Positions 17,433 to 27,019 of a stretch of 64,000 bases of DNA are shown here, one piece after another (position 1 is the first letter of the stretch; every line of letters begins with the position of its first letter). The DNA is from Oscillospiraceae bacterium (lineage in GTDB: Bacteria > Bacillota > Clostridia > Oscillospirales > Ruminococcaceae), in the NCBI GenBank assembly GCA_017468365.1, contig JAFUIS010000019.1, positions 11,009 to 75,008 on the forward strand, in the 5' to 3' direction. The position numbers and the translations under genes were made by a program. The notes under the pieces were generated by a model. That model searched no databases. It was not told the origin of the DNA and was given only the letters and a program-made list of their open reading frames with translations.

Positions 17433-17500
17433 TTGCAAGCATTGAAATTATGTGCTATACTAACCATGTTGAAATGTATTATTTTCAGGAGGATAACATA

Positions 17501-17659
17501 ATGGAACACATTAAAACTGTTAACAACGCAAACCTTAAAGAATCTTGCGCAAAAGGCGGCTGCGGCGAATGCCAGGCTTCCTGCCAGTCTGCATGCAAAA
17601 CTTCCTGCACTGTTGCAAACCAGGAATGCGAAAACGAATCCCGCAAAGGCAACAAATAA
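17501..17659 (+). CDS. scfA: SCIFF (six-cysteines-in-forty-five) ribosomal peptide precursor
   Basis: ATG 17501 after AGGAGG; MEHIKTVNNANLKESCAKGGCGECQASCQSACKTSCTVANQEC; directly upstream of a radical SAM/SPASM gene. Confidence 0.85.
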   Translation: MEHIKTVNNANLKESCAKGGCGECQASCQSACKTSCTVANQECENESRKGNK

Positions 17660-17728
17660 TTATTATTGATTATTAAATTGCAGGTGTGCCAAACACGGCG
17701 CACCTGCCGTTTTTTTGGAGTAATTTAA

Positions 17729-19105
17729 ATGGTACATACTTTTTATCAAAACGGTTATTATATTGCTCTTGATGTAAACTCCGGCGCGGTACATGTTCTT
17801 GACAAGCTTGCTTTCGATCTTCTCAATAAGTTTGAGGACAAGCTTCCCGAAGAATGTCCCGCGGAGTTTGTAAAAGAGCTTTCCGGTGAATATCCCGAAC
17901 AGGATATTCTTGAAGTTTATTCTGAACTTCTCGGCCTTCAGAAAGCGGGCCAGCTTTTCAGCGAAGACGATTATGAGCGTTTTACCGATATGATGAAGGG
18001 CGCACCCATCAAATCCATGTGCCTTCACATTTCTCACGACTGCAACCTTCGCTGCAAATATTGCTTTGCTTCCACCGGCGACTTCGGCAAAGGCAGAAAA
18101 CTCATGCCCGTTGAAACCGGTAAAAAAGCGATCGATTTTCTTCTTACCCATTCCGGAAACCGCCACAACCTTGAACTTGACTTCTTCGGCGGCGAGCCTC
18201 TTATGAACTGGGACGCAGTAAAAGAGATCGTTGACTATGCAAGAAGCAAAGAAGAAGAATATAACAAGAAATTCCGCTTCACCGTTACCACCAACGGCGT
18301 TCTTCTTAATGATGACAGCATCGACTACATCAATAAAGAGATGAAAAACGTTGTTCTTTCTCTTGACGGAAGAAAGTGCGTAAACGACGCTATGCGCCTT
18401 ACCGTAAACGGAAAAGGAAGCTATGATATCTTTGTTCCCAAGTTCCAGAAGCTCGTTGAAAAACGTCTTCAGGGCGAAAACAAGGAATATTATGCACGCG
18501 GAACCTTTACCAAGAACAACCTTGACTTTGCAAAAGACGTTTATCATATTGCCGACGATCTCGGCTTTGATCAGCTGAGTGTTGAGCCTGTTATCGCAGA
18601 TCCCAGCGAGCCTTATGCTATCACCGAGGAAGATCTTCCAACCATTTTTGCCGAGTATGAAAAACTCGCGGTTGAAATGGTAAGAAGAAAGAAAGAAGAG
18701 GGCGGATGCTTTAACTTCTTCCACTTCATGATCGACCTTGACCAGGGTCCTTGTGCTATAAAGCGCCTTCGCGGATGCGGATGCGGCAACGAATACGTTT
18801 CCGTAACCCCCGATGGCGATATCTATCCCTGCCACCAGTTCGTAGGCAACGACGAATGGAAAATGGGCAATCTCGACGACGAAACCCTTGATATCGAGAT
18901 GAAAGATAAATTTGCGTGCTCGAATATCTATACCAAAGAAGGCTGCCGCGATTGCTGGGCAAGATTCTATTGCTCCGGCGGATGCAACGCAAACAACTAC
19001 AGTTTCAATAAGGATATCAACAAACCCGTTAAGATCTCCTGCGAACTTGAAAGAAAACGCGTTGAATGTGCTATCATGATAAAAGTTGCAATGGCAGACA
19101 AATAA
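17729..19105 (+). CDS. scfB: SCIFF radical SAM/SPASM maturase (thioether-forming)
   Basis: CNLRCKYC radical SAM cluster motif; Cys-rich SPASM C-terminus (CGCGNEY...CHQF, CRDCWARFYCSGGC). Confidence 0.9.
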   Translation: MVHTFYQNGYYIALDVNSGAVHVLDKLAFDLLNKFEDKLPEECPAEFVKELSGEYPEQDILEVYSELLGLQKAGQLFSEDDYERFTDMMKGAPIKSMCLHISHDCNLRCKYCFASTGDFGKGRKLMPVETGKKAIDFLLTHSGNRHNLELDFFGGEPLMNWDAVKEIVDYARSKEEEYNKKFRFTVTTNGVLLNDDSIDYINKEMKNVVLSLDGRKCVNDAMRLTVNGKGSYDIFVPKFQKLVEKRLQGENKEYYARGTFTKNNLDFAKDVYHIADDLGFDQLSVEPVIADPSEPYAITEEDLPTIFAEYEKLAVEMVRRKKEEGGCFNFFHFMIDLDQGPCAIKRLRGCGCGNEYVSVTPDGDIYPCHQFVGNDEWKMGNLDDETLDIEMKDKFACSNIYTKEGCRDCWARFYCSGGCNANNYSFNKDINKPVKISCELERKRVECAIMIKVAMADK

Positions 19106-19190: not shown

Positions 19191-19775
19191 ATGGACATTA
19201 AAAATATGCTGAACGTTGTTTTGAAAAACAGGATACTGATTTTTTGCTGTGCGGTGCTCATTGGAGGAAATGTTTTCGGAACGTGCGTGCTCAAAATTCT
19301 TCCGACTGAAGTTTGCAAAAATCTTTTCATTATAATTTCGCATAACGAAGGTGGTTTTATAAGCGAATTCATGAACAGATTCTGTTTTCCGGCAATAATT
19401 ATAACTGCGGTTTATTTTGCCGGATTCAGCATTTTCGGAAGATTTTCGGCACTCTTTTCAGTGTTTACATATGGAATTTATTATTCGTTTATAAATGGGA
19501 TAAATTATATGTTTTGCGGTGCGGAATATTTTGTAAAAAACGTGATTTCATATTTCAGTTTGCTTCTTTATTTCGGATTTTTTCTTATTCTTATGTCTGA
19601 AAATGCATTTTATTCGTCAAAAATATTATCGGATTCCGTAAAAATACAAAATGTCGAAAAACCGCATTTTAAAGCCAAAAACTTAACTGTAAAGTATATT
19701 AGTTTTACAGTGATTTTTGCGGTTTTTTCAGCATTTTCTTCTTATATTTCAATTATTCTTCAGCCGGTTCTTTAG
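19191..19775 (+). CDS. polytopic membrane protein, possibly SpoIIM-like
   Basis: Start at MDIKNML; ~5 hydrophobic segments in 194 aa. The SpoIIM idea rests only on size, topology and adjacency to a Xer-type gene. Confidence 0.35.
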   Translation: MDIKNMLNVVLKNRILIFCCAVLIGGNVFGTCVLKILPTEVCKNLFIIISHNEGGFISEFMNRFCFPAIIITAVYFAGFSIFGRFSALFSVFTYGIYYSFINGINYMFCGAEYFVKNVISYFSLLLYFGFFLILMSENAFYSSKILSDSVKIQNVEKPHFKAKNLTVKYISFTVIFAVFSAFSSYISIILQPVL

Positions 19776-20763
19776 GTTTTCTTTTGGGCGGCTTAACGTT
19801 TTTGAGGGGAGATTTGTTGGAAGCATCTTCGATTTGTTTGTTGCTTACATGGGTGTAAATTTCTGTGGTCGAAAGACTTTCGTGACCCAAAAGTTCTTTG
19901 AGCACGCGGATATCGACTCCGGCGTCCTGATAAAGTAAAGTCGCGGCAGTATGGCGAAGTTTATGAGGCGAAATTCCCATTCCGTCAAGCCCGGCTTCTT
20001 TCAGACAATGTTCCACGATTTGTTCCACACCTCGGGTGCTTATCCTTTTGCCGAAACGGTTCAAAAAAAGCGCGTTTTTATCGACTCTTTTGACTTTTTC
20101 GCCGGAATTGAGCACCGAAAGATAGCTTTCAATGGCATTCAGGCAGGAATTATTGAGATAAACAATGCGTTCTTTGTTGCCTTTACCAAGAAGTTTAAGC
20201 TGATTATCGCGTATATCATGAACATTGATTCCGCAAAGTTCCGAAACACGCATTCCACAGTTCAAAAACAGCGTAATTATGCAAAAATCTCGCTCTGTAA
20301 AGTTGGTTTCAACATGTGAAAGCAGTTCAAGCGACTGTTCAAGCGTAAGATATTTTGGAAGTGCTTTTTTAAGCTTTGGAGTTTCCAGATTGAGCATCGG
20401 GTTTTCCGAAAGCTTTCCGCTGGATACCGTAAGATATTTATAAAAGGATCTTATTGCGGAAACTTTTCTCGAACGCGCTTTGGCATCATTGTCATGGTTG
20501 CGCTGAAATTCCGAAAGAAATCTCATAGCATCGGTTCTTGTGGCGTTTTTTATCAAATCGAATGTTGCCGAACGTATTTTGATATCCTTATAATCAACGT
20601 CATCGGAAACCAGTCCGTTATCGATCATAAGAAATCTTATGAACGATCTTAAGTCAACGTAATAACCGTCGACGGTTCTGGGAGAGCGTCCTTTGATGGT
20701 TTCCATATAGAACAGAAAATCCTGAAGGAACTCCGGACAATCGTTAAGATGGTCTTTATTCAT
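19753..20763 (-). CDS. tyrosine site-specific recombinase, XerC/XerD family, with Lys/Pro-rich C-terminal tail
   Basis: 336 aa; SAM-like N-domain; catalytic signatures GMRVSEL, HKLRHTAAT, LLGHESLSTTEIYTH; tail KNVKPPKRKPKEPAEE; ATG 26 nt from the palindromic site. Confidence 0.9.
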   Translation of the reverse strand: MNKDHLNDCPEFLQDFLFYMETIKGRSPRTVDGYYVDLRSFIRFLMIDNGLVSDDVDYKDIKIRSATFDLIKNATRTDAMRFLSEFQRNHDNDAKARSRKVSAIRSFYKYLTVSSGKLSENPMLNLETPKLKKALPKYLTLEQSLELLSHVETNFTERDFCIITLFLNCGMRVSELCGINVHDIRDNQLKLLGKGNKERIVYLNNSCLNAIESYLSVLNSGEKVKRVDKNALFLNRFGKRISTRGVEQIVEHCLKEAGLDGMGISPHKLRHTAATLLYQDAGVDIRVLKELLGHESLSTTEIYTHVSNKQIEDASNKSPLKNVKPPKRKPKEPAEE

Positions 20764-20789
20764 AAAAATCCTCCTTTTCTTCTCCCCTT

Positions 20790-20819
20790 AACTTCGCTAA
20801 ATTTCTATTTAGCGAAATT
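20790..20819 (+). repeat. attL: dif-like recombination site
   Basis: AACTTCGCTAAA-TTTCTA-TTTAGCGAAATT; arms are inverted repeats with one mismatch; shares a 15-nt identical block with attR. Confidence 0.8.
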
Positions 20820-20849
20820 GACACTTACGTTTTAAGGGGGTACACTCGT

Positions 20850-22148
20850 ATGAAAAAATTTGTTGCTTTGGCTTTGTCTTTGGTGCTTGTTTTTTCTATG
20901 GGTGTACCCTCTTTTGGTGCAACATCTGTTTCTATTGATGAATCCGGTGTTTTTGCTCCGGATAAATCTAACACAAATTACTCTACAAATACTGTTTTTA
21001 CGAATTTAAACATTCTTGAAGCGATTCGCGTTCTTGCGGATAGTTCTGCTTATGATATTCATCAGCTTAAAGTTCTTTTTTCTACTGGCTCTTATAAAAC
21101 CGTTGCTGACGCATTAAATCTTTATTTTAGTGGTGCAGTCGCTGATGTTAATTCCTATGGTAACGGTAATCTTGGCGATATGATGAGCACTTTTGCTTAT
21201 TTGGGTAGAGAGATTCAAGGAATGAATTATTTTACTCCCTACTCCGGTGGCGAAGCAACTTCTCTTGATGAAGCATTAAACAAGAATCTTTTATATATTC
21301 AAAATCAGCTTCGAGTTATTTCGGACAGTATGGGTGCAACTTCTGCAAGTTCCGGTTTAATGTCCGGTTGGACTTTGTCCGGTGTTCCCTCTCCAGAGGG
21401 CTACGATTCTTCTTGGTATCGTCGTATTTTGATGAATCTTTATTCTTTCCGTCTTGACTTTGCACGTCTTTACGACGGAACTTGGGCGGATTCTACTAAT
21501 TATGCTGATAGTTTCTTTTATCAAACATATTTACAAAATAAAATTCAATCTGATAATGTAGAAGGCCTTTTAAATGGTTGGTCTGCTACATCTACTGCGT
21601 ATCCGGACGGATATGAAAACTCTTGGTATCGTGCTATTAATCAAAGATTATATGCTTTTCAAAGTTCTTGGGTTAATATAATGAATCAAGTTATGATTCC
21701 ACGTGTAAATTCTATTCAAAGTCATCTCTTTGATATCTTAGATGATACTGATATGTTGCAACAAGTTCTTGCCGATGAAGATGACCTTGCGATGAAAGAT
21801 TCTCTTGCATCTTCAAAAACCGAAGTTGTTGACTTTGTCGGAAATGGTATTACTTCCTCGAATGGTTCTTCCTTTTCGCTTATGTCCGGTATAACTGACG
21901 GAATCGGCTTTGCTACTGATTTCAATGAGTTTTTTTCAATGCCTGATATCGGTTTAGGTGATATATTTAAAGTATTTGATAATACTTCGGAATCCCTTTC
22001 GTGGTTTACGGAAGAAACTGCTTCAAATATAGATACCGTTCCGGCTACATATTCGAGAGAATCGAATCCGCAGACGGAAATTGTCACTTCGTATTATGAG
22101 GATAGAAAATCCGAATTCAACGATATGTGGGGTGATATAGTTGGTTGA
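20850..22148 (+). CDS. secreted phage protein with internal duplicated module (candidate adsorption or host-recognition protein)
   Basis: Signal peptide MKKFVALALSLVLVFSMGVPSFGA; repeated GW..S..P(E/D)GY(D/E)xSWYR..(N/L)..LY.F module. Confidence 0.6.
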   Translation: MKKFVALALSLVLVFSMGVPSFGATSVSIDESGVFAPDKSNTNYSTNTVFTNLNILEAIRVLADSSAYDIHQLKVLFSTGSYKTVADALNLYFSGAVADVNSYGNGNLGDMMSTFAYLGREIQGMNYFTPYSGGEATSLDEALNKNLLYIQNQLRVISDSMGATSASSGLMSGWTLSGVPSPEGYDSSWYRRILMNLYSFRLDFARLYDGTWADSTNYADSFFYQTYLQNKIQSDNVEGLLNGWSATSTAYPDGYENSWYRAINQRLYAFQSSWVNIMNQVMIPRVNSIQSHLFDILDDTDMLQQVLADEDDLAMKDSLASSKTEVVDFVGNGITSSNGSSFSLMSGITDGIGFATDFNEFFSMPDIGLGDIFKVFDNTSESLSWFTEETASNIDTVPATYSRESNPQTEIVTSYYEDRKSEFNDMWGDIVG

Positions 22149-22287
22149 CCCTATAATCAATGCTGTTGAAGTTTTTCTCGTTTTTTATGAGAATCTCCCT
22201 CAACCGATTATTGCTTTGTTTAATCTTGTTTTGTTTCTTATGGTGATTTTCTACATTATAAGAACAGTAGAAAAGGCGGGTTCGTGA
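22141..22287 (+). CDS. small hydrophobic phage protein (48 aa, TTG start; minor coat candidate)
   Basis: Hand-translated; GGGGTG RBS; one TM (IIALFNLVLFLMVIFYII); overlaps neighbours at both ends. Confidence 0.35.
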   Translation: MVDPIINAVEVFLVFYENLPQPIIALFNLVLFLMVIFYIIRTVEKAGS

Positions 22288-22430
22288 TGTTGTTTAATAT
22301 TTTTGATATTCTTTTCGGTCTTTTTCCTGCTTGGTTTGCTACATTTTTGATTATTGCTTTTTTTGTTACGGTTATAGTCTTGCTTATTCGTCTTGTTGTT
22401 TGGATTATTGAAATTATTCCCGGATTCTAA
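22287..22430 (+). CDS. small hydrophobic phage protein (47 aa)
   Basis: ATG overlaps the previous stop (TGATG); MLFNIFDILFGLFPAWFATFLIIAFFVTVIVLLIRLVVWIIEIIPGF. Confidence 0.5.
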   Translation: MLFNIFDILFGLFPAWFATFLIIAFFVTVIVLLIRLVVWIIEIIPGF

Positions 22431-22442
22431 AGGGGTGATTAT

Positions 22443-22634
22443 ATGACCGCTGACGGTCTTTCATTCATACAATGGTTTTTTCCTGCTATGTGGTCTTTTT
22501 TTACAAGTTGGCATATTCCCGGAACTGGTGTCAGCCCTGCCGGGTGGCTCTTGTTCTTGCTTCTTGCAGGAATTGTTTTGAAAATTGTATTTCATATTCT
22601 ACACTCCGGTTGGCTTTCCGGTGGAGGTAATTAA
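22443..22634 (+). CDS. small membrane phage protein (63 aa)
   Basis: Two hydrophobic segments; GGGG RBS; stop abuts the next ATG. Confidence 0.55.
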   Translation: MTADGLSFIQWFFPAMWSFFTSWHIPGTGVSPAGWLLFLLLAGIVLKIVFHILHSGWLSGGGN

Positions 22635-23228
22635 ATGAAGATTATATGTGTTTTGCTTTCAATCGTCTTTCTCTTTTCCTTTTCGGTAACAGCTTTCGCC
22701 GAAGTTGCATTGGACGAACTCGGCGAAGTTGTTCCGGTTGAAGATAGTACCCAGAGCGAAGAATCTGGCGAAGCTACTTCCGGAAATGAGTATCTCGATA
22801 TGGTTTTAAATAATATGCAGAATGATATTGACGATTTACAGTCTGATGTTGAGGTGCTTCAAGATGATGTATCTGCGATTTCTGAATCAGATGTTGTATC
22901 TGATTCGACAGTTGAAAATTCTACTTCCGAAGAACCGGAAGAAATCAACCCGGAATTAGGTATTGATGAAAGTACGCCAACGGCTGTAAATGTTTATGCT
23001 TTAAATCCGATAACTCCGGAAGATACAACGGGTTTGAAGTCCGTTCTTCTTTCTCTTATCGGTGATTATGACGCTATTGTAGTTGAATACGAATACACGG
23101 GTAGTAATAGCTATACAAACTATCTTCGTGAAGTTCAACCGGATTATGTTTGGTTGTGCTCTGCTGCAATATTCCTTGTTATAATCTATTCTGTGTTTAG
23201 GCTTGGGGGTGCTCTGTTCCGTGGATAA
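22635..23228 (+). CDS. acidic secreted phage protein with C-terminal membrane anchor (pIII-like minor coat candidate)
   Basis: Signal peptide MKIICVLLSIVFLFSFSVTAFA, D/E/S-rich middle, C-terminal TM VWLCSAAIFLVIIYSVF plus basic end. Confidence 0.55.
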   Translation: MKIICVLLSIVFLFSFSVTAFAEVALDELGEVVPVEDSTQSEESGEATSGNEYLDMVLNNMQNDIDDLQSDVEVLQDDVSAISESDVVSDSTVENSTSEEPEEINPELGIDESTPTAVNVYALNPITPEDTTGLKSVLLSLIGDYDAIVVEYEYTGSNSYTNYLREVQPDYVWLCSAAIFLVIIYSVFRLGGALFRG

Positions 23229-23229
23229 T

Positions 23230-23364
23230 ATGCAAGCTTTTGCCCTTTGGCTTTTGGAAGAAATTCCGAATTTTCTCTTGTCTGAACCGATATGTTACTT
23301 TGTCGGTATCGCTATTTTGTTCTTGGTAATAAAGCTGTTCGGCTCTATTATAAAAATTCATTAA
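23230..23364 (+). CDS. small hydrophobic phage protein (44 aa)
   Basis: Hand-translated MQAFALWLLEEIPNFLLSEPICYFVGIAILFLVIKLFGSIIKIH; starts 1 nt after the previous stop. Confidence 0.5.
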   Translation: MQAFALWLLEEIPNFLLSEPICYFVGIAILFLVIKLFGSIIKIH

Positions 23365-23379
23365 AAGGAGTTTTAATTT

Positions 23380-23559
23380 ATGGAAGGAAGTGTAACTGTG
23401 GCAACTATTCTCGAATCTGCAGGACTTATCGTCACCGAGGCTCTCTCTTGGCTCACCGAAACCGTTACCACCGTCGTAGGCTCTCCGCTTCTTCTTATGT
23501 TCGTAATCCTCGGACTTGTCGGAACTGGCGTCGGTCTTATGCGTAGAATCATTGGCTGA
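23380..23559 (+). CDS. major coat protein candidate (pVIII-like, 59 aa)
   Basis: AAGGAG RBS; amphipathic acidic N-part, TM PLLLMFVILGLVGTGVGL, basic C-end MRRIIG; strong terminator follows, as after gene VIII in Ff phages. Confidence 0.7.
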   Translation: MEGSVTVATILESAGLIVTEALSWLTETVTTVVGSPLLLMFVILGLVGTGVGLMRRIIG

Positions 23560-23569
23560 TGATTCCGTG

Positions 23570-23607
23570 GGGAGTGCACACGCTTTGCGTGATCGCACTC
23601 CCTTTTT
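23570..23607 (+). terminator. strong terminator after the coat gene
   Basis: GGGAGTGC ... GCACTCCC with nested CACGC/GCGTG pairing, then TTTTT. Confidence 0.8.
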
Positions 23608-23637
23608 CGCTATTTTGTATTTAGGTGGTGCACACTT

Positions 23638-24360
23638 TTGTATATTGTCTTTTTTCTACTTCTGTTTTTTGGCACAATATTTGCCGTTCTTGCTTATCGT
23701 TTCCGTAATCCTTTCAAGCTGTATTATATTTTCGGAAAAAAGGGCTCGGGAAAATCTCTGTTTATGGTTAAGTTTATGTTGAGGTATCTTCGTAAAGGTT
23801 GGACGGTTTACACCGATATTTCCGATGTAAATATTCCCGGTGTTCGTCTTATCAATGCGAAAGACCTCGACACTTTCCGTCCGGAAGAAAATTCCGTTAT
23901 ATTTCTTGATGAAGTCGGAATTACTTTCGATAATCGTAAATTCAAAACATTCACGGACGGTATGCGTGATTATTTCAAGTTTCAGCGTAAATATAAATGC
24001 GTTGTTTATATGAACTCCCAAAGCTTTGATGTTGATAAAAAAATTCGTGACCTTATAGACCGTTTTTACCTCGCAACAAGCCTTGGTAATGTTATTTCAA
24101 TATACCGACCTATAAATCGTAAGGTTGCCCTCGTAGAAGCTTCTGCGCAGGGTGAGAGCCGTGTTGCTGATAACCTTGTATTTGCTCCGATATGGGAATG
24201 GAAATTCATCTTTATGCCGAACTATTTCAAATGGTTCGACAGCTTCGAAGCTCCATACCGTGAACTTATCCCATTCAAAGAAATCCCCGGTAAACTTCCG
24301 AAAGACCCTACACCGAAGCAGGCTCTAAAATTGATTCATAAAGGACTGAAAAAGAAATGA
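23638..24360 (+). CDS. Zot/pI-like P-loop morphogenesis ATPase
   Basis: TTG start after GGTGG; Walker A GKKGSGKS, Walker B VIFLDEVG, then QRKYKCVVYMNSQSFDVDKKIRDLI resembling the Zot-family core. Confidence 0.75.
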   Translation: MYIVFFLLLFFGTIFAVLAYRFRNPFKLYYIFGKKGSGKSLFMVKFMLRYLRKGWTVYTDISDVNIPGVRLINAKDLDTFRPEENSVIFLDEVGITFDNRKFKTFTDGMRDYFKFQRKYKCVVYMNSQSFDVDKKIRDLIDRFYLATSLGNVISIYRPINRKVALVEASAQGESRVADNLVFAPIWEWKFIFMPNYFKWFDSFEAPYRELIPFKEIPGKLPKDPTPKQALKLIHKGLKKK

Positions 24361-24539
24361 TTAAACTATGGCTTGGAAATAAACTCCGCTTTCTCTCGCA
24401 CCTTGGAATGTTCCTCTGTGGCTTGTGCTCGCTCATTGCACCGTGGTATATTGCGCTTGTAATCTTCGTGCTTGCTTTCGTACTCGACTATGTCGCATTT
24501 TCTGCGGTAGCGCAGTATTTTACAACCGATGAGGGGTAA
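24357..24539 (+). CDS. small two-TM phage protein coupled to the ATPase gene
   Basis: ATGA overlap with the Zot-like gene; 60 aa, hydrophobic. Confidence 0.55.
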   Translation: MIKLWLGNKLRFLSHLGMFLCGLCSLIAPWYIALVIFVLAFVLDYVAFSAVAQYFTTDEG

Positions 24540-24564
24540 AGGGGGCTTTGCCCTCTTTATTCGC

Positions 24565-24638
24565 CTTTGAGCGCCGTGCTCAAAGTTCCGTGCTTGTCAT
24601 ATGCTCAACACATATCCCGTGCTCAAGCTGTGCGTGCT
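24565..24638 (+). repeat. hairpin plus iteron-like CCGTGCT repeats in the phage noncoding region
   Basis: CTTTGAGC-gccgt-GCTCAAAG (24565-24585); CCGTGCT at 24574, 24588 and 24617; GCGTGCT at 24632. Confidence 0.6.
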
Positions 24639-24660
24639 GTTACCTTATTCAGCATAAAAA

Positions 24661-24700
24661 GGCAGGATCACCGCCATAAATATGGCGGTGCCTGCCTTTT
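24661..24700. terminator. bidirectional terminator between the phage structural module and the RHH gene
   Basis: GGCAGG-at-CACCGCCATA-aa-TATGGCGGTG-CCTGCC flanked by A5 and T4. Confidence 0.85.
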
Positions 24701-24701
24701 C

Positions 24702-24842
24702 TTATTCTTGTTCCTCAAGATACTTTTTGATAATTTGTGCTATTAAATTAGATACGCTTCTGCCCTCTTTCTGTACCTGCTCTTTTAACTTCTCTGTAAT
24801 TTCGTCATCTAAAAATGTTGATATTCTGTTTTTGTCCGTCAT
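24702..24842 (-). CDS. ribbon-helix-helix (CopG/Arc-like) repressor, 46 aa
   Basis: Start at MTDKNRISTFLDDEITEKLKEQVQKEGRSVSNLIAQIIKKYLEEQE; RHH pattern (beta strand RISTFLD plus two helices); the only minus-strand gene in the element. Confidence 0.7.
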   Translation of the reverse strand: MTDKNRISTFLDDEITEKLKEQVQKEGRSVSNLIAQIIKKYLEEQE

Positions 24843-24879
24843 ATAAATGTTCCTTTCTTGCTGAATTTGCAAATTTCGG

Positions 24880-24908
24880 TTGACTTGGTGGTACAACCGT
24901 AGTACAAT
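24880..24908 (+). promoter_or_regulatory. candidate promoter of the phage replication module
   Basis: TTGACT, 17-nt spacer, TACAAT. Confidence 0.55.
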
Positions 24909-24914
24909 GCAGTT

Positions 24915-24940
24915 GTTCAAAAGTTGTCCTACTTTTGAAC
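24915..24940. promoter_or_regulatory. operator-like perfect inverted repeat in the divergent promoter region
   Basis: GTTCAAAAGT-tgtcct-ACTTTTGAAC, just downstream of the -10 element. Confidence 0.55.
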
Positions 24941-25033
24941 CCTCATATTATAGCCTGGGGAGTTGTGACCGGAGAATCCCTCTCCCCTCGCCACCTTATG
25001 AGGAAATAAAACTTGACGAAATGAGGTAAAATT

Positions 25034-25288
25034 ATGGACAGAAAGATTACTATCGTTGGTATTGAAGAATACGACTTCAAAACTCGTGAGAATGAAACTC
25101 TCGAAATGGCAAACATTCACTATCAGTATCAGAATCAGCGAGTTGAAGGCATAGCCTGCGGTCGTGTGACTGTATCTAAAAAAATGCTTGACCGTTATAA
25201 TATTCAGCTTAATGCAGAATATATCGGAGCGTTTTATCTTGACGCTAATAAACGCGAAAAACTTGCGGCACTTTTCGAGGAGGCTTGA
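25034..25288 (+). CDS. phage protein, 84 aa (position and size compatible with an ssDNA-binding pV-like protein; unproven)
   Basis: GAGG RBS; first gene of the replication module. Confidence 0.4.
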   Translation: MDRKITIVGIEEYDFKTRENETLEMANIHYQYQNQRVEGIACGRVTVSKKMLDRYNIQLNAEYIGAFYLDANKREKLAALFEEA

Positions 25289-25290
25289 AA

Positions 25291-25497
25291 GTGATTACTA
25301 CTTATGATTCCCTTCATACTATGAACGATAATATTTATGATGTTATTTACGATTCTGAACGTAAAGCCTTTGGTGTTATCGTAGCTTGGGACGATTTCAC
25401 CTGTGAACCACAGATTAAATATTGTGATTCTCTCGATAATGCAAAGCGCCTTGCTATTGGCTTTGTAATTGCTGAAAATAATATTTTTAATTTTTAA
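25291..25497 (+). CDS. phage hypothetical protein (~68 aa)
   Basis: GTG 25291 lies 8 nt after GAGGAGG; the track's TTG at 25285 is the alternative start. Confidence 0.45.
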   Translation: MITTYDSLHTMNDNIYDVIYDSERKAFGVIVAWDDFTCEPQIKYCDSLDNAKRLAIGFVIAENNIFNF

Positions 25498-25526
25498 TCC
25501 GCACGGACTACGAGAATGTGCGGATT
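25496..25526 (+). promoter_or_regulatory. candidate rolling-circle double-strand origin hairpin with nick-site-like loop
   Basis: AATCCGCAC-ggACTACGAgaat-GTGCGGATT, 40 nt upstream of rep. Confidence 0.6.
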
Positions 25527-25566
25527 GTAGCATGTAGCAAAATTAAATAAATTGAGGTTTTGATTT

Positions 25567-26151
25567 ATGAGTAGAAATTCAAATTTCAACCCGGAAACAT
25601 CAAAACGTCGTGTCTTTTTTATTGAACTTTATCCCGATTCTTCAACATATAATTGTGATGAACTTTTAGCTGTTGCTCGTTCTTTTCCCGAATATGCTTT
25701 GATTTGTCACGATAAAGATGTTAATTCGGTTACTGGGGAAGTTAAAAAACCGCATTATCATATTGTAGTGCGTGTTAAGCCTTCCCTGCTTTCTACGGTG
25801 GCGAATAAGTTTCCCGGTTTGGAAACTCGCTTTATTGAGGTAACACACGAATTTAGGTGGTGTTTACGCTATCTAATTCACTTGGACGATATAACAAAAT
25901 ATCAATATCCGCACGAAGCTGTTGAAACTAACATTTCGGATATCGAATCCTATTGGCGTATTTCTTCGGAATGGTCGCTTGTTCGTGAAATGATTCAGCT
26001 TCGGTTGACTGGTTCAACATGGTATCAAGTGTTTGACTTTTGCGGAAAAAATCAATGTTATGATGTCTTTCGCCGTAATATAGCGATAATCAAACTCGTT
26101 GCCGGAGAATCCGACTGCACCGATTATGGTGAATGGGATGAAACAATATGA
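25567..26151 (+). CDS. HUH rolling-circle replication initiator, pMV158 RepB (Rep_2)-like
   Basis: ICHDKDV...KKPHYHIVVRV (HUH motif) and CLRYLIHLDDITKYQY (catalytic Tyr motif); 194 aa. Confidence 0.8.
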   Translation: MSRNSNFNPETSKRRVFFIELYPDSSTYNCDELLAVARSFPEYALICHDKDVNSVTGEVKKPHYHIVVRVKPSLLSTVANKFPGLETRFIEVTHEFRWCLRYLIHLDDITKYQYPHEAVETNISDIESYWRISSEWSLVREMIQLRLTGSTWYQVFDFCGKNQCYDVFRRNIAIIKLVAGESDCTDYGEWDETI

Positions 26152-26181
26152 ACTTCGGAAAAGTTTCTATTTAGCGAAGTT
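26151..26181 (+). repeat. attR: dif-like recombination site
   Basis: AACTTCGGAAAAG-TTTCTA-TTTAGCGAAGTT; first base overlaps the rep stop codon. Confidence 0.8.
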
Positions 26182-26272
26182 GGCTCTATGGAAATTATAG
26201 CACAAAAAGCCTCTTCCCGTCAAGTGTTTGCATCAAAAAAAGCCTGATTTTATCAGGCCTTTTTGCTTATTG

Positions 26273-27019
26273 CTATTCTTCGCAAAGCGGCAAAATTCCG
26301 CCTATATCACGTAATGTTCTTCCGCCGAGGTTTTCTACGTAAATATTTCTGTTGCGAAGAAAATCTTTTATATTCTCATAATCTTTAATTGATTTTAAAT
26401 CACCGCTGGTTCCGAGGATCTTCTGTTCGACCATTCCCCCGCATCCGCCGATAAAACCGGTATCGTATCCTTCAAGGAATATTCCGCCTTCTTTTATTTT
26501 GAGAACTTCTATTTCTTTTTGTGTTAAAACTTTAGCAATACCCGGATCTGCGGTTATAACAGCATCTTCAGAAACTGCAAGCACCGAACATTTTGCATAG
26601 CCTTGCTTTACCGCAATGATGTTATAATCGTTCTTTTCTGCGAATTCCATCAGCTTTTTATCGATTATATCAGGGTTTACGATAATATTTCGGCCGATTA
26701 TCTCTGCATTTATAAGACAGTCGTCCGGATAGCTGAAATCAAGGTTTTTTTCTGTGGTTTCGGTAGCAAAACCCATCATTTTGAGCATATCGCTGCTCTT
26801 TTTTGAGCATCCTGCGGTAAGAATATGATTTCCGCCGAGATGCAGCAGCTGCAAATCGGCATGCGAAGCTATTCCCCGCGGAAGATTTTTGTTGGGTTCG
26901 ATAGGAACAACGGCTATTTTTGCACATTCCAAAGCGGCAATAACGTCCTCGGCCTGGGCGGAAACCGCGGCAACAATGACGTTTTTGTCCGGAAAATTGG
27001 GATTTTTTATAAAATTCAT
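26273..27019 (-). CDS. conserved hypothetical protein, abuts the radA stop codon
   Basis: 248 aa, no motif I can name (GYDTGFIGGCGG near the C-terminus); start is 1 nt after the radA stop. Confidence 0.6.
   Translation of the reverse strand: MNFIKNPNFPDKNVIVAAVSAQAEDVIAALECAKIAVVPIEPNKNLPRGIASHADLQLLHLGGNHILTAGCSKKSSDMLKMMGFATETTEKNLDFSYPDDCLINAEIIGRNIIVNPDIIDKKLMEFAEKNDYNIIAVKQGYAKCSVLAVSEDAVITADPGIAKVLTQKEIEVLKIKEGGIFLEGYDTGFIGGCGGMVEQKILGTSGDLKSIKDYENIKDFLRNRNIYVENLGGRTLRDIGGILPLCEE

Follow-up and report, generated by a model that had tools for sequence, protein, structure and literature searches.

The DNA analysed here is a 64,000-nt stretch from an Oscillospiraceae bacterium, hereafter the window; all coordinates are positions in it, and L-numbers (L001, L003 and so on) denote the loci and contigs with which it was compared. 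At 20790-26181 the window carries an insertion of 5,362 bp, as measured by repeat spacing, between two dif-like sites. The insertion contains 13 open reading frames (ORFs), all of them intact, of which 12 lie tightly packed on the plus strand, and one of these encodes a Zot/pI-type assembly ATPase of filamentous phages (inoviruses). A gene for a Xer-family tyrosine recombinase of 336 aa (19753-20763, minus strand) starts only 27 bp outside the left site. An initial annotation of this DNA had recognized a 5.4-kb module bounded by two dif-like repeats and had described it as an integrase-less, inovirus-like prophage in a sporulating Firmicute; both sites, as well as every ORF named there, were found where it had placed them. 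Our results make it likely that the segment is a complete inovirus-type prophage of about 5.36 kb, which entered a Xer/dif-like site of its Gram-positive host as an integrative mobile element exploiting Xer (IMEX).

The left site, attL (20790-20819), reads AACTTCGCTAAAT-TTCT-ATTTAGCGAAATT and is a near-perfect palindrome composed of the host left arm, the common core and the phage right arm. The right site, attR (26151-26181), reads AACTTCGGAAAAG-TTTCT-ATTTAGCGAAGTT; here, a degenerate phage left arm is followed, with a shift of 1 nt, by the core and the host right arm. At their outer arms (20790-20802 and 26169-26181), the two sites form a 13-nt inverted repeat without mismatch, and the 31-nt site pattern had no match in 100 shuffled versions of the window. 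Comparison of attL, attR and the empty site attB revealed a shared core of 15 nt, TTTCTATTTAGCGAA (20802-20816 in attL and 26164-26178 in attR), and thus the crossover must fall inside this core. The same comparison predicted that the empty site is the perfect palindrome AACTTCGCTAAATTTCTATTTAGCGAAGTT. Exactly this sequence, followed by the right flank of the window, is present in the metagenome scaffold L003, which was found together with L002 and L001 by an exact-sequence lookup of the neighbouring recombinase; attL differs from this attB only at 20817, with A for G. Occupied junctions are also found in other samples: contig L002 shows the left one, contigs that carry the exact Zot sequence show both prophage junctions, and L090 and L092 have attR as in the window. 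In three further host contigs the sequence breaks off 53 bp upstream of the recombinase gene; the one inspected, L001, ends inside the site, as would be expected because assemblers break at polymorphic junctions. The empty allele and the junction variants that the initial annotation had proposed to look for in related genomes are thus both in hand. Since the recombinase gene is still present at the empty site of L003, it is host-encoded, and we ruled out that it forms part of the element. In the lysogen, attL is probably the working dif.

The predicted attP of the window element contains TTCGGAAAAGTTTCTATTTAGCGAAATTGACAC; of the two attP arms, one is good (1 mismatch to the host arm) and the other is poor and shifted by 1 nt (6/13 in register; counted by eye). 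A close relative in circular form was found in contig L103 (5,576 nt, with a 30-nt terminal overlap), which has the same gene set as the element at 76-93% nt identity. In L103, the stop codon of rep runs into AACTTCGGATAAAC-TTAT-ATTTAGCGAAGTT-GACACTTACG…ATG, the last being the start of the large structural gene (p432 in the window). This rep-to-p432 junction is the predicted attP, and therefore the prophage corresponds to a circle that was opened in the core of one dif-like site.

The occupancy of the site varies between hosts. It is empty in the close relatives L007 and L008, and occupied with the same layout as in the window in L097 and L108. The flanks of L094 are 98.8% identical to those of the window, so that L094 comes from the same species as the window host; the same site holds a different inovirus there, with a Zot protein of 65% identity, a longer Rep that includes RepB_C, a permuted genome and attP after zot. 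In L055 (Acutalibacteraceae), an inovirus with a Rep_trans-like Rep lies at a differing dif sequence. Furthermore, L099 contains the phage of the window at 92-97% nt identity between host flanks that are only 77-81% identical. Between the window and L099, the synonymous divergence (dS) of the phage genes is 0.1-0.5, which is 3-10 times lower than that of the host genes (1.2-1.8), and this points to recent movement of the phage between species. The ratio of non-synonymous to synonymous divergence (dN/dS) in this comparison, from which radA was left out because of a frame-shifted alignment, is 0.00-0.39 for all of the phage genes tested. These include the ORFs of 48-63 aa, which are therefore real genes.

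Other arrangements were observed at this type of site. A decayed prophage in L096 (3213-7480) occupies the same site; it has neither p70 nor rep, its p84 homologue is truncated, and a deletion extends through attR up to the end of the DUF6873 gene. In L105 (3500-9900; also in L106), an inovirus and a DUF2726/HTH pair are found beside DUF6873-radA at the perfect palindrome AATTGAACAAAAT-AAAA-ATTTTGTTCAATT, with a half-degenerate copy at the left; DctMPQ genes adjoin this site and no recombinase gene does, and thus the linkage of xer and dif is not universal. In the virome inoviruses L087 (1557-1632, minus strand) and L089 (2954-3027, plus strand), rep and the large structural gene are separated by a complete tRNA-Thr gene, and neither of these phages encodes an integrase. 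The tRNA gene sits at the position of the dif-like attP, and it seems that a dif mimic and a tRNA gene can replace each other as the attP module. In a sister lineage, in which attP follows zot, two inverted dif-like half-sites lie about 55 nt apart (L094, 9175-9275; L101, 2525-2635; also L095 and L098). As single-stranded DNA (ssDNA), these half-sites form one long hairpin whose stem is interrupted by an internal bubble around the central region (z -3.9 and -3.1; none of 200 shuffled sequences folded as well).

The host recombinase matches PF00589 with 134 bits, and its best family matches are Xer models; the XerH model was absent among the matches listed. R172, K197, H267, R270, H294 and Y303 are invariant columns, to which an active-site role was assigned by eye. 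Orthologues are present across the Oscillospirales in a continuous range of identity from 93% to 46%, and named homologues in metagenome-assembled genomes of Oscillospiraceae are labelled 'XerC' by NCBI. The neighbours of the gene are conserved in many genera, with the SCIFF maturase on one side and DUF6873-radA on the other. In the window, the SCIFF peptide maturase (TIGR03974, 717 bits) lies left of the recombinase at about 17500-19105, and in related contigs the SCIFF precursor gene is directly upstream of it; this is ordinary Clostridia content that serves as a synteny marker. We could not uphold the description of the host as sporulating, since the neighbouring amidase scores 175 bits on the CwlD model (cut-off 221.6) and the 229-aa membrane protein nearby has no SpoIIM match. 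A reading of the latter as SpoIIM, which would have given a synteny link to B. subtilis ripX, was dropped because neither Pfam nor NCBIfam gave a match. The term 'integrase-less' is correct for the element itself. However, the Xer-family gene of the host, 27 bp from attL, had been overlooked; it is the obvious candidate for the integration enzyme, and integrase-less would therefore mean the use of a neighbouring host recombinase.

We surveyed the recombinase locus in 80 species-level genomes and counted palindromes within 400 nt upstream of the gene at 79 loci. In most of the surveyed genomes the orthologue adjoins a palindrome: a perfect 11/11 palindrome with a core of the AAAT-N4-ATTT type is present at 42/79 loci as against 2/395 control windows, and a site lies within 400 nt of the recombinase gene at 42-45 of the 79 loci. 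The arms vary by lineage (TTCGCTAAAT, TATACAAAAT, TCAACAAAAT, TAAACAAAAT and others) and are symmetric within each, and recombinase identity is 61% for a shared arm type versus 54% otherwise. Among sites of the TTATACAAAAT type, some genomes have the spacer ATTC (L023, L042, L059 and L065) and others its reverse complement GAAT (L025, L041, L050 and L072), and thus the asymmetric centre takes either orientation relative to the recombinase gene. In place of the differing arms of a canonical XerC/XerD site, the arms are symmetric over 11-13 nt here and at 42/79 loci, which suggests that a single recombinase acts on both halves, as do XerH, XerS, XerA and XerL (PMC5357621, PMC9765430). GC skew is higher on one side of the site at 44/47 loci (means, +0.052 and -0.068), and coding strands converge at the site at 34/47 loci compared with 6/74 pseudo-sites 5-6 kb away, in a count that used composition-scored ORFs and is still imperfect. 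An analysis of strands by longest ORF gave no signal in the window, as antisense ORFs were picked. Converging strands and GC skew together are the signature expected of a replication terminus, here drawn from partly non-independent loci and weak in the window. The site may be the dif at which chromosome dimers are resolved; in the complete Oscillospirales genome CP181263.1 it lies near 1.865 Mb of 2.53 Mb.

The native promoter of the recombinase is probably TTGACG-18-TGcTATAAT (26194-26223, minus strand; 11/12 with TG), the best promoter-like match in 19700-26400. Seen from the recombinase gene, it lies 13 bp past the site, just after the DUF6873-radA terminator, and is conserved in L007 and L008 (read by eye). 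At an empty site, this promoter would transcribe through dif into the recombinase gene. The palindrome is therefore in the 5' leader at empty sites, where it could allow autoregulation of the recombinase. Another promoter match, at 20818-20846, was set aside since it overlaps the ribosome-binding site of p432.

Of the genes of the element, which are on the plus strand unless noted, the first encodes p432 (20850-22148), a secreted protein of 432 aa with a signal-like N-terminus and an internal repeat, which is a candidate adsorption or minor coat protein. Its dN/dS against L099 is 0.39, and virome relatives have a protein of 390-505 aa at the same position. The repeat, PEGYDSSWYRRI at 21392-21428 and PDGYENSWYRAI at 21602-21638 (210 nt apart), suggests duplicated domains in this putative adsorption protein. 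A 48-aa single-transmembrane (TM) protein follows at 22141-22287, a candidate minor virion or assembly protein with a TM-like segment (4 synonymous and 1 non-synonymous changes against L099), and a second single-TM protein of 48 aa (22284-22430) overlaps it by 4 nt; in relatives, 48-aa ORFs are collinear with these. The next gene, s63 (22443-22634), encodes a 63-aa single-TM protein with 40-49% aa identity to virome inoviruses (6 synonymous and 1 non-synonymous changes against L099). The 197-aa protein at 22635-23228 begins with a signal-like segment, is acidic in the middle and ends in a C-terminal TM anchor, and it may be a tip protein like g3p or g6p; its C-terminal part is 39% identical to L089. 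It is followed by p53 (23203-23364), a 53-aa single-TM protein with 32-49% identity to relatives (8 synonymous and 1 non-synonymous changes against L099). One TM-like segment is present in each of the proposed structural proteins and none in the replication proteins. The small hydrophobic ORFs pointed out in the initial annotation are thus conserved in homologous elements and under purifying selection.

The candidate for the major coat protein, proposed earlier on the same grounds, is the 59-aa product of 23380-23559, with an acidic amphipathic N-terminal part, one TM segment (residues 29-47), a basic C-end of net charge +2 and no signal peptide. It is 37-53% identical to the ORF at the same position in L087-L089 and differs from its L099 counterpart by 7 synonymous and 0 non-synonymous changes. 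Curated coat models did not match this ORF, and among the structural proteins none has a curated family match. Directly after the coat gene, an intrinsic-terminator-like hairpin with a T-run (23569-23615, plus strand) has a predicted dG of -28.4 kcal/mol (z -2.8), which agrees with the strong terminator noted previously; a simple terminator scanner missed it because of its long loop.

The Zot/pI-type assembly ATPase (240 aa; 23638-24360) has an N-terminal TM segment, a Walker A motif (GKKGSGKS) and a Walker B motif (VIFLDE), and its assignment, made at first from these motifs, is borne out by family searches: PF05707 with 26.1 bits (cut-off 20.3), phrog_197 ('Zot-like') with an E-value of 7e-12 and phrog_1675 (M13 protein I) with 1e-7. 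It is 59% identical in aa sequence to the 'zonular occludens toxin' of Inovirus sp. MT135304 in GenBank and has 1,302 homologues at E<=1e-10, many of them on contigs of 5-6 kb; against L099, there are 55.5 synonymous and 5.5 non-synonymous changes. PDB sequence searches with Zot and with p84 gave nothing useful. The protein is short: its sole TM-like segment (23638-23700) is at the N-terminus, before the P-loop, and no extra-cytoplasmic C-terminal domain was seen. A short, N-terminally anchored Zot fits a host without an outer-membrane secretin. A 60-aa membrane protein (24357-24539; 11 synonymous and 2 non-synonymous changes against L099) is translationally coupled to zot, and in relatives a small TM ORF is likewise found after zot. 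As had been noted before, the element has neither a secretin nor lysis genes nor an integrase: family searches gave no match to any of these among the element ORFs scanned, and recombinase and transposase families did not match the scanned ORFs between attL and attR either. The impression that the coding strand is T-rich, formerly a judgement by eye, has now been computed, with T at 35.7% in phage genes versus 25.9% in host genes, and at 46.7% versus 31.2% in third codon positions.

The right half of the element contains the genes for replication and control. The divergent ribbon-helix-helix (RHH; Arc/CopG-like) repressor gene recognized earlier lies at 24702-24842 on the minus strand; its product is 46 aa according to the metagenome gene calls in L090 and L092, the ORF can be extended to 24920, and the protein matches PF07878 (RHH_5) with 36.9 bits and the Arc-like repressors of phrog_3180. 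Among the dif-integrated phages, all those with an available right half have this gene (the window element, L094, L096, L097, L099 and L108), whereas tblastn did not find it in the virome genomes L087-L089, a distribution that fits a lysogeny module. The 84-aa protein p84 (25034-25288) is, from its predicted fold, a candidate gene-V-like ssDNA-binding protein. The AlphaFold2 model (pLDDT 87.6) has the order beta1-3, helix, beta4-5 of an OB fold, and Foldseek retrieved mostly the OB folds of single-stranded DNA-binding proteins (SSBs) and PriB, the top TM-scores being 0.58-0.63 for the Ff gene V protein and 0.50 for the Pf3 SSB. p70 (25285-25497), a 70-aa cytoplasmic protein of the replication module, has no family match and was unmatched in L099 by blastn.

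The last gene encodes the HUH rolling-circle Rep (194 aa; 25567-26151) of the RepB/pMV158 type, as inferred before from its motifs; it shows 15 synonymous and 2 non-synonymous changes against L099. The Rep_OBD domain (PF01719) scores 60 bits, and in an alignment with RepB of pMV158 (3dkx) the HUH motif (HYHIV versus HYHVL) and the region of the catalytic Tyr (RYLIH versus LYLTH) are common to both. The two differ in that only the origin-binding/nuclease domain was detected in the 194-aa Rep, without the RepB_C oligomerization domain, which the 269-aa Rep of L094 has. Nick sites of the pMV158 type have the sequence TACTACG/AC and are located in a hairpin loop of the displaced strand. At about 2285-2310 on the plus strand of L089, we noticed a perfect hairpin, GGGGAGT-ACTACGAC-ACTCCCC, whose loop holds such a nick sequence and which we take to be probably the origin of that phage.

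Several observations weigh against the interpretation as a complete IMEX prophage and have to be considered together with other explanations. The insertion places the recombinase gene 5.4 kb from its sole recognizable promoter, which is now antisense into rep. The replication origin was not found: the only copy of the nick motif in the element is on the minus strand (24897-24904), and it lacks conservation in relatives. The Foldseek E-values for p84 are weak (0.04-0.1). A circular form of the exact element was not found either, with 0 matches in IMG/VR for the attP junction and 0 matches in two scans of JGI metagenomes for attP or the phage left end, and a scan of IMG/VR with Zot peptides gave no confirmed relative. 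The missing attP junction, together with a degenerate attR arm that may block excision and the decayed, rep-less relative at the same site in L096, could mean that the segment is a fixed, defective inovirus remnant without replication or particles, with the empty site as the ancestral state. We regard this as unlikely, because all 13 ORFs are intact with the low dN/dS given above, a nearly identical phage resides in a host of about 80% identity with a dS 3-10 times lower than that of the host, and the close relative L103 is a circle with the same gene set. An integrated rolling-circle plasmid or satellite with a few phage-like genes, rather than a virus, would account for a Rep of the pMV158 plasmid family and for structural proteins outside the curated families. 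However, the Zot/pI ATPase, the conserved coat-like gene with its terminator, the gene-V-like SSB candidate and the run of single-TM proteins in inovirus order speak for a virus, collinear relatives were deposited as circular faecal-virome genomes, and in the study of pig viromes particles could be purified and filaments were observed (PMC9723715), so that we consider a plasmid or satellite extremely improbable.

As for the agent of integration, catalysis by the Xer-family recombinase is what we infer from the adjacency of its gene, the architecture of the sites and the position of the crossover within the core. HUH enzymes can mediate integration in other systems, and a phage function (the HUH Rep as strand transferase) might integrate the element, or homologous recombination across the shared 15 nt might do so, the adjacency being incidental. 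The tRNA-Thr genes that replace the dif-like site in L087 and L089, again in the absence of an integrase, and the inovirus of L105 at a palindrome without an adjoining recombinase gene would be in line with this. On the other hand, attP has the same layout of two arms and a spacer as the host site, with the crossover falling in its core; phages with unrelated Reps (RepB-type, or Rep_trans-like in L055) and varied attP positions all hit the local, lineage-specific palindrome; and 15 nt is short for RecA-dependent recombination. Integration by these routes is accordingly very unlikely. Alternatively, the recombinase and its site could be part of a larger mobile island or act as a dedicated integration platform, the enzyme being an island integrase and not Xer. 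The recombinase indeed scores below the cut-off of all the Xer models (XerC, 233 versus 335.15 bits; XerD, 215.7 versus 329.6; XerA, 197 versus 220; XerS, 148.8 versus 267), the terminus signal in the window is weak (GC skew, 0.044 on the left versus 0.012 on the right), and the multi-locus signal is partly non-independent because the flanking genes are syntenic in many loci. Yet the neighbours of the gene are conserved over many genera, identity declines smoothly from 93% to 46%, there is a single site per locus, always beside the gene, coding strand and GC skew converge at that site, and the best matches are Xer models; an island origin therefore seems quite doubtful.

With the IMEX prophage as the preferred interpretation, the life cycle of the element can be sketched as follows. 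By analogy with its families, the episome would be a small circle replicated by the RepB-type HUH nickase, and the single strand would be coated by the 84-aa gene-V-like protein. The short Zot/pI ATPase would then extrude it through the membrane, where it would gain the 59-aa coat and the small membrane proteins, with neither a secretin nor lysis, so that filamentous ssDNA virions would leave the intact cell. In attP, between rep and the first structural gene, a good arm, the host central region and a degenerate arm would follow each other, and the Xer-family recombinase of the host would join this attP to the palindromic host site within the 15-nt core. The product would be a near-intact dif (attL) beside the recombinase gene and a crippled attR at the far side. 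By analogy with LME-1 (PMC9765430), the crippled attR should disfavour excision, and the RHH repressor would maintain lysogeny.

Both the phage clade and the IMEX principle are already known. In a tblastn search, Zot had 73 GenBank phage matches: 'Inovirus sp.' from pigs, bajarodino viruses from rodents and Dulem viruses from lemurs. The relatives listed in GenBank are 5-7 kb, the three that we fetched are circular, and the gene order is the same as in the window. Together with the contigs of PMC9723715, these gut inoviruses (including MT135287-311) are collinear with the element, with identities of 50-59% for Zot, 30-42% for Rep and 37-53% for the coat candidate. They are episomal circles with no host in the record, whereas the window has an integrated copy in an identified host; the three virome inoviruses examined are without the RHH gene, and two of them have tRNA-Thr in place of the dif-like attP. 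Particles purified from pig faeces yielded circular Firmicute-type inoviruses by the hundreds, and electron microscopy showed filaments (PMC9723715); Clostridiales hosts were predicted for infant-gut inoviruses (PMC10159846). In its main text, the inovirus census is silent on Xer (PMC6813254), and a 2017 review of Xer gives XerS, XerH and XerA as the only single-recombinase systems. We found no report of a Xer module in Clostridia or Oscillospirales, or of inoviruses using one, in a literature search of incomplete coverage that amounts to absence of evidence only.

Inoviruses that exploit Xer are well known in Proteobacteria, namely CTXphi, VGJphi and TLCphi of Vibrio cholerae (PMC5357621). 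Like the element described here, these IMEX phages have no integrase, carry an attP that mimics dif and leave one good and one altered site, and unrelated phages compete for one dif. The present case differs in its Gram-positive Clostridia host and in a perfect palindrome beside a single recombinase gene instead of an asymmetric XerC/XerD dif. In contrast to that of CTXphi, the attP of the window element seems to be a simple two-arm site, and it is the folds of the sister lineage (L094 and L101) that are reminiscent of the CTX attP(+). LME-1 of Legionella with XerL is similar in that a dif mimic reveals the host dif, integration leaves one flank with an intact dif and the other with a modified one, and the recombinase fails the Xer criteria (PMC9765430). 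In that system the modified site was shown to lower excision, and XerL was proven to be necessary and sufficient (PMC9765430). LME-1 is not an inovirus, and the recombinase gene adjoins the site in our case, which is read from the sequence. XerS/difSL of streptococci and lactococci and XerH/difH of Helicobacter and Campylobacter share with our locus a linked xer gene, a palindrome-like site and, apparently, a terminus-like context (PMC5357621, PMC2965235, PMC3325230). The present recombinase scores higher on the XerC and XerD models than on that of XerS, and its site has symmetric arms with a spacer of 4-6 nt in place of the 11-bp centre of difSL.

Taken together, a wider proposal can be made, which we put forward tentatively and do not hold to be the more probable case. 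Members of the Oscillospirales (Oscillospiraceae, Ruminococcus, Acutalibacteraceae and relatives of Faecalibacterium and Gemmiger) may resolve chromosome dimers by an undescribed single-recombinase Xer system, whose gene is transcribed through its own palindromic dif at the terminus. A diverse guild of gut inoviruses of about 5 kb may exploit this module as IMEXs, retuning attP to each host lineage and swapping attP types (dif-like or tRNA-Thr), with one lineage using a folded, CTX-like ssDNA attP, and their integration would sever the recombinase from its promoter.

Small inoviruses are abundant in human and animal gut viromes, and their hosts and lifestyles are mostly guesses; the junction described here ties one clade to the Oscillospiraceae and offers a concrete route by which a filamentous phage of Gram-positive bacteria could integrate without an integrase. 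Conversely, as LME-1 did in Legionella, the phage points to a probable dimer-resolution module, consisting of a xer gene and a palindromic dif, in one of the major orders of anaerobic gut bacteria. One site that takes up at least two different inoviruses within one species, and a phage that crosses between hosts of about 80% identity, should make the system tractable for studies of phage competition and host range, and a short dif-flanked cassette may help to excise markers in bacteria that resist genetic manipulation. It is thus probable that these small and common gut phages integrate by borrowing the enzyme with which the host untangles its chromosome.

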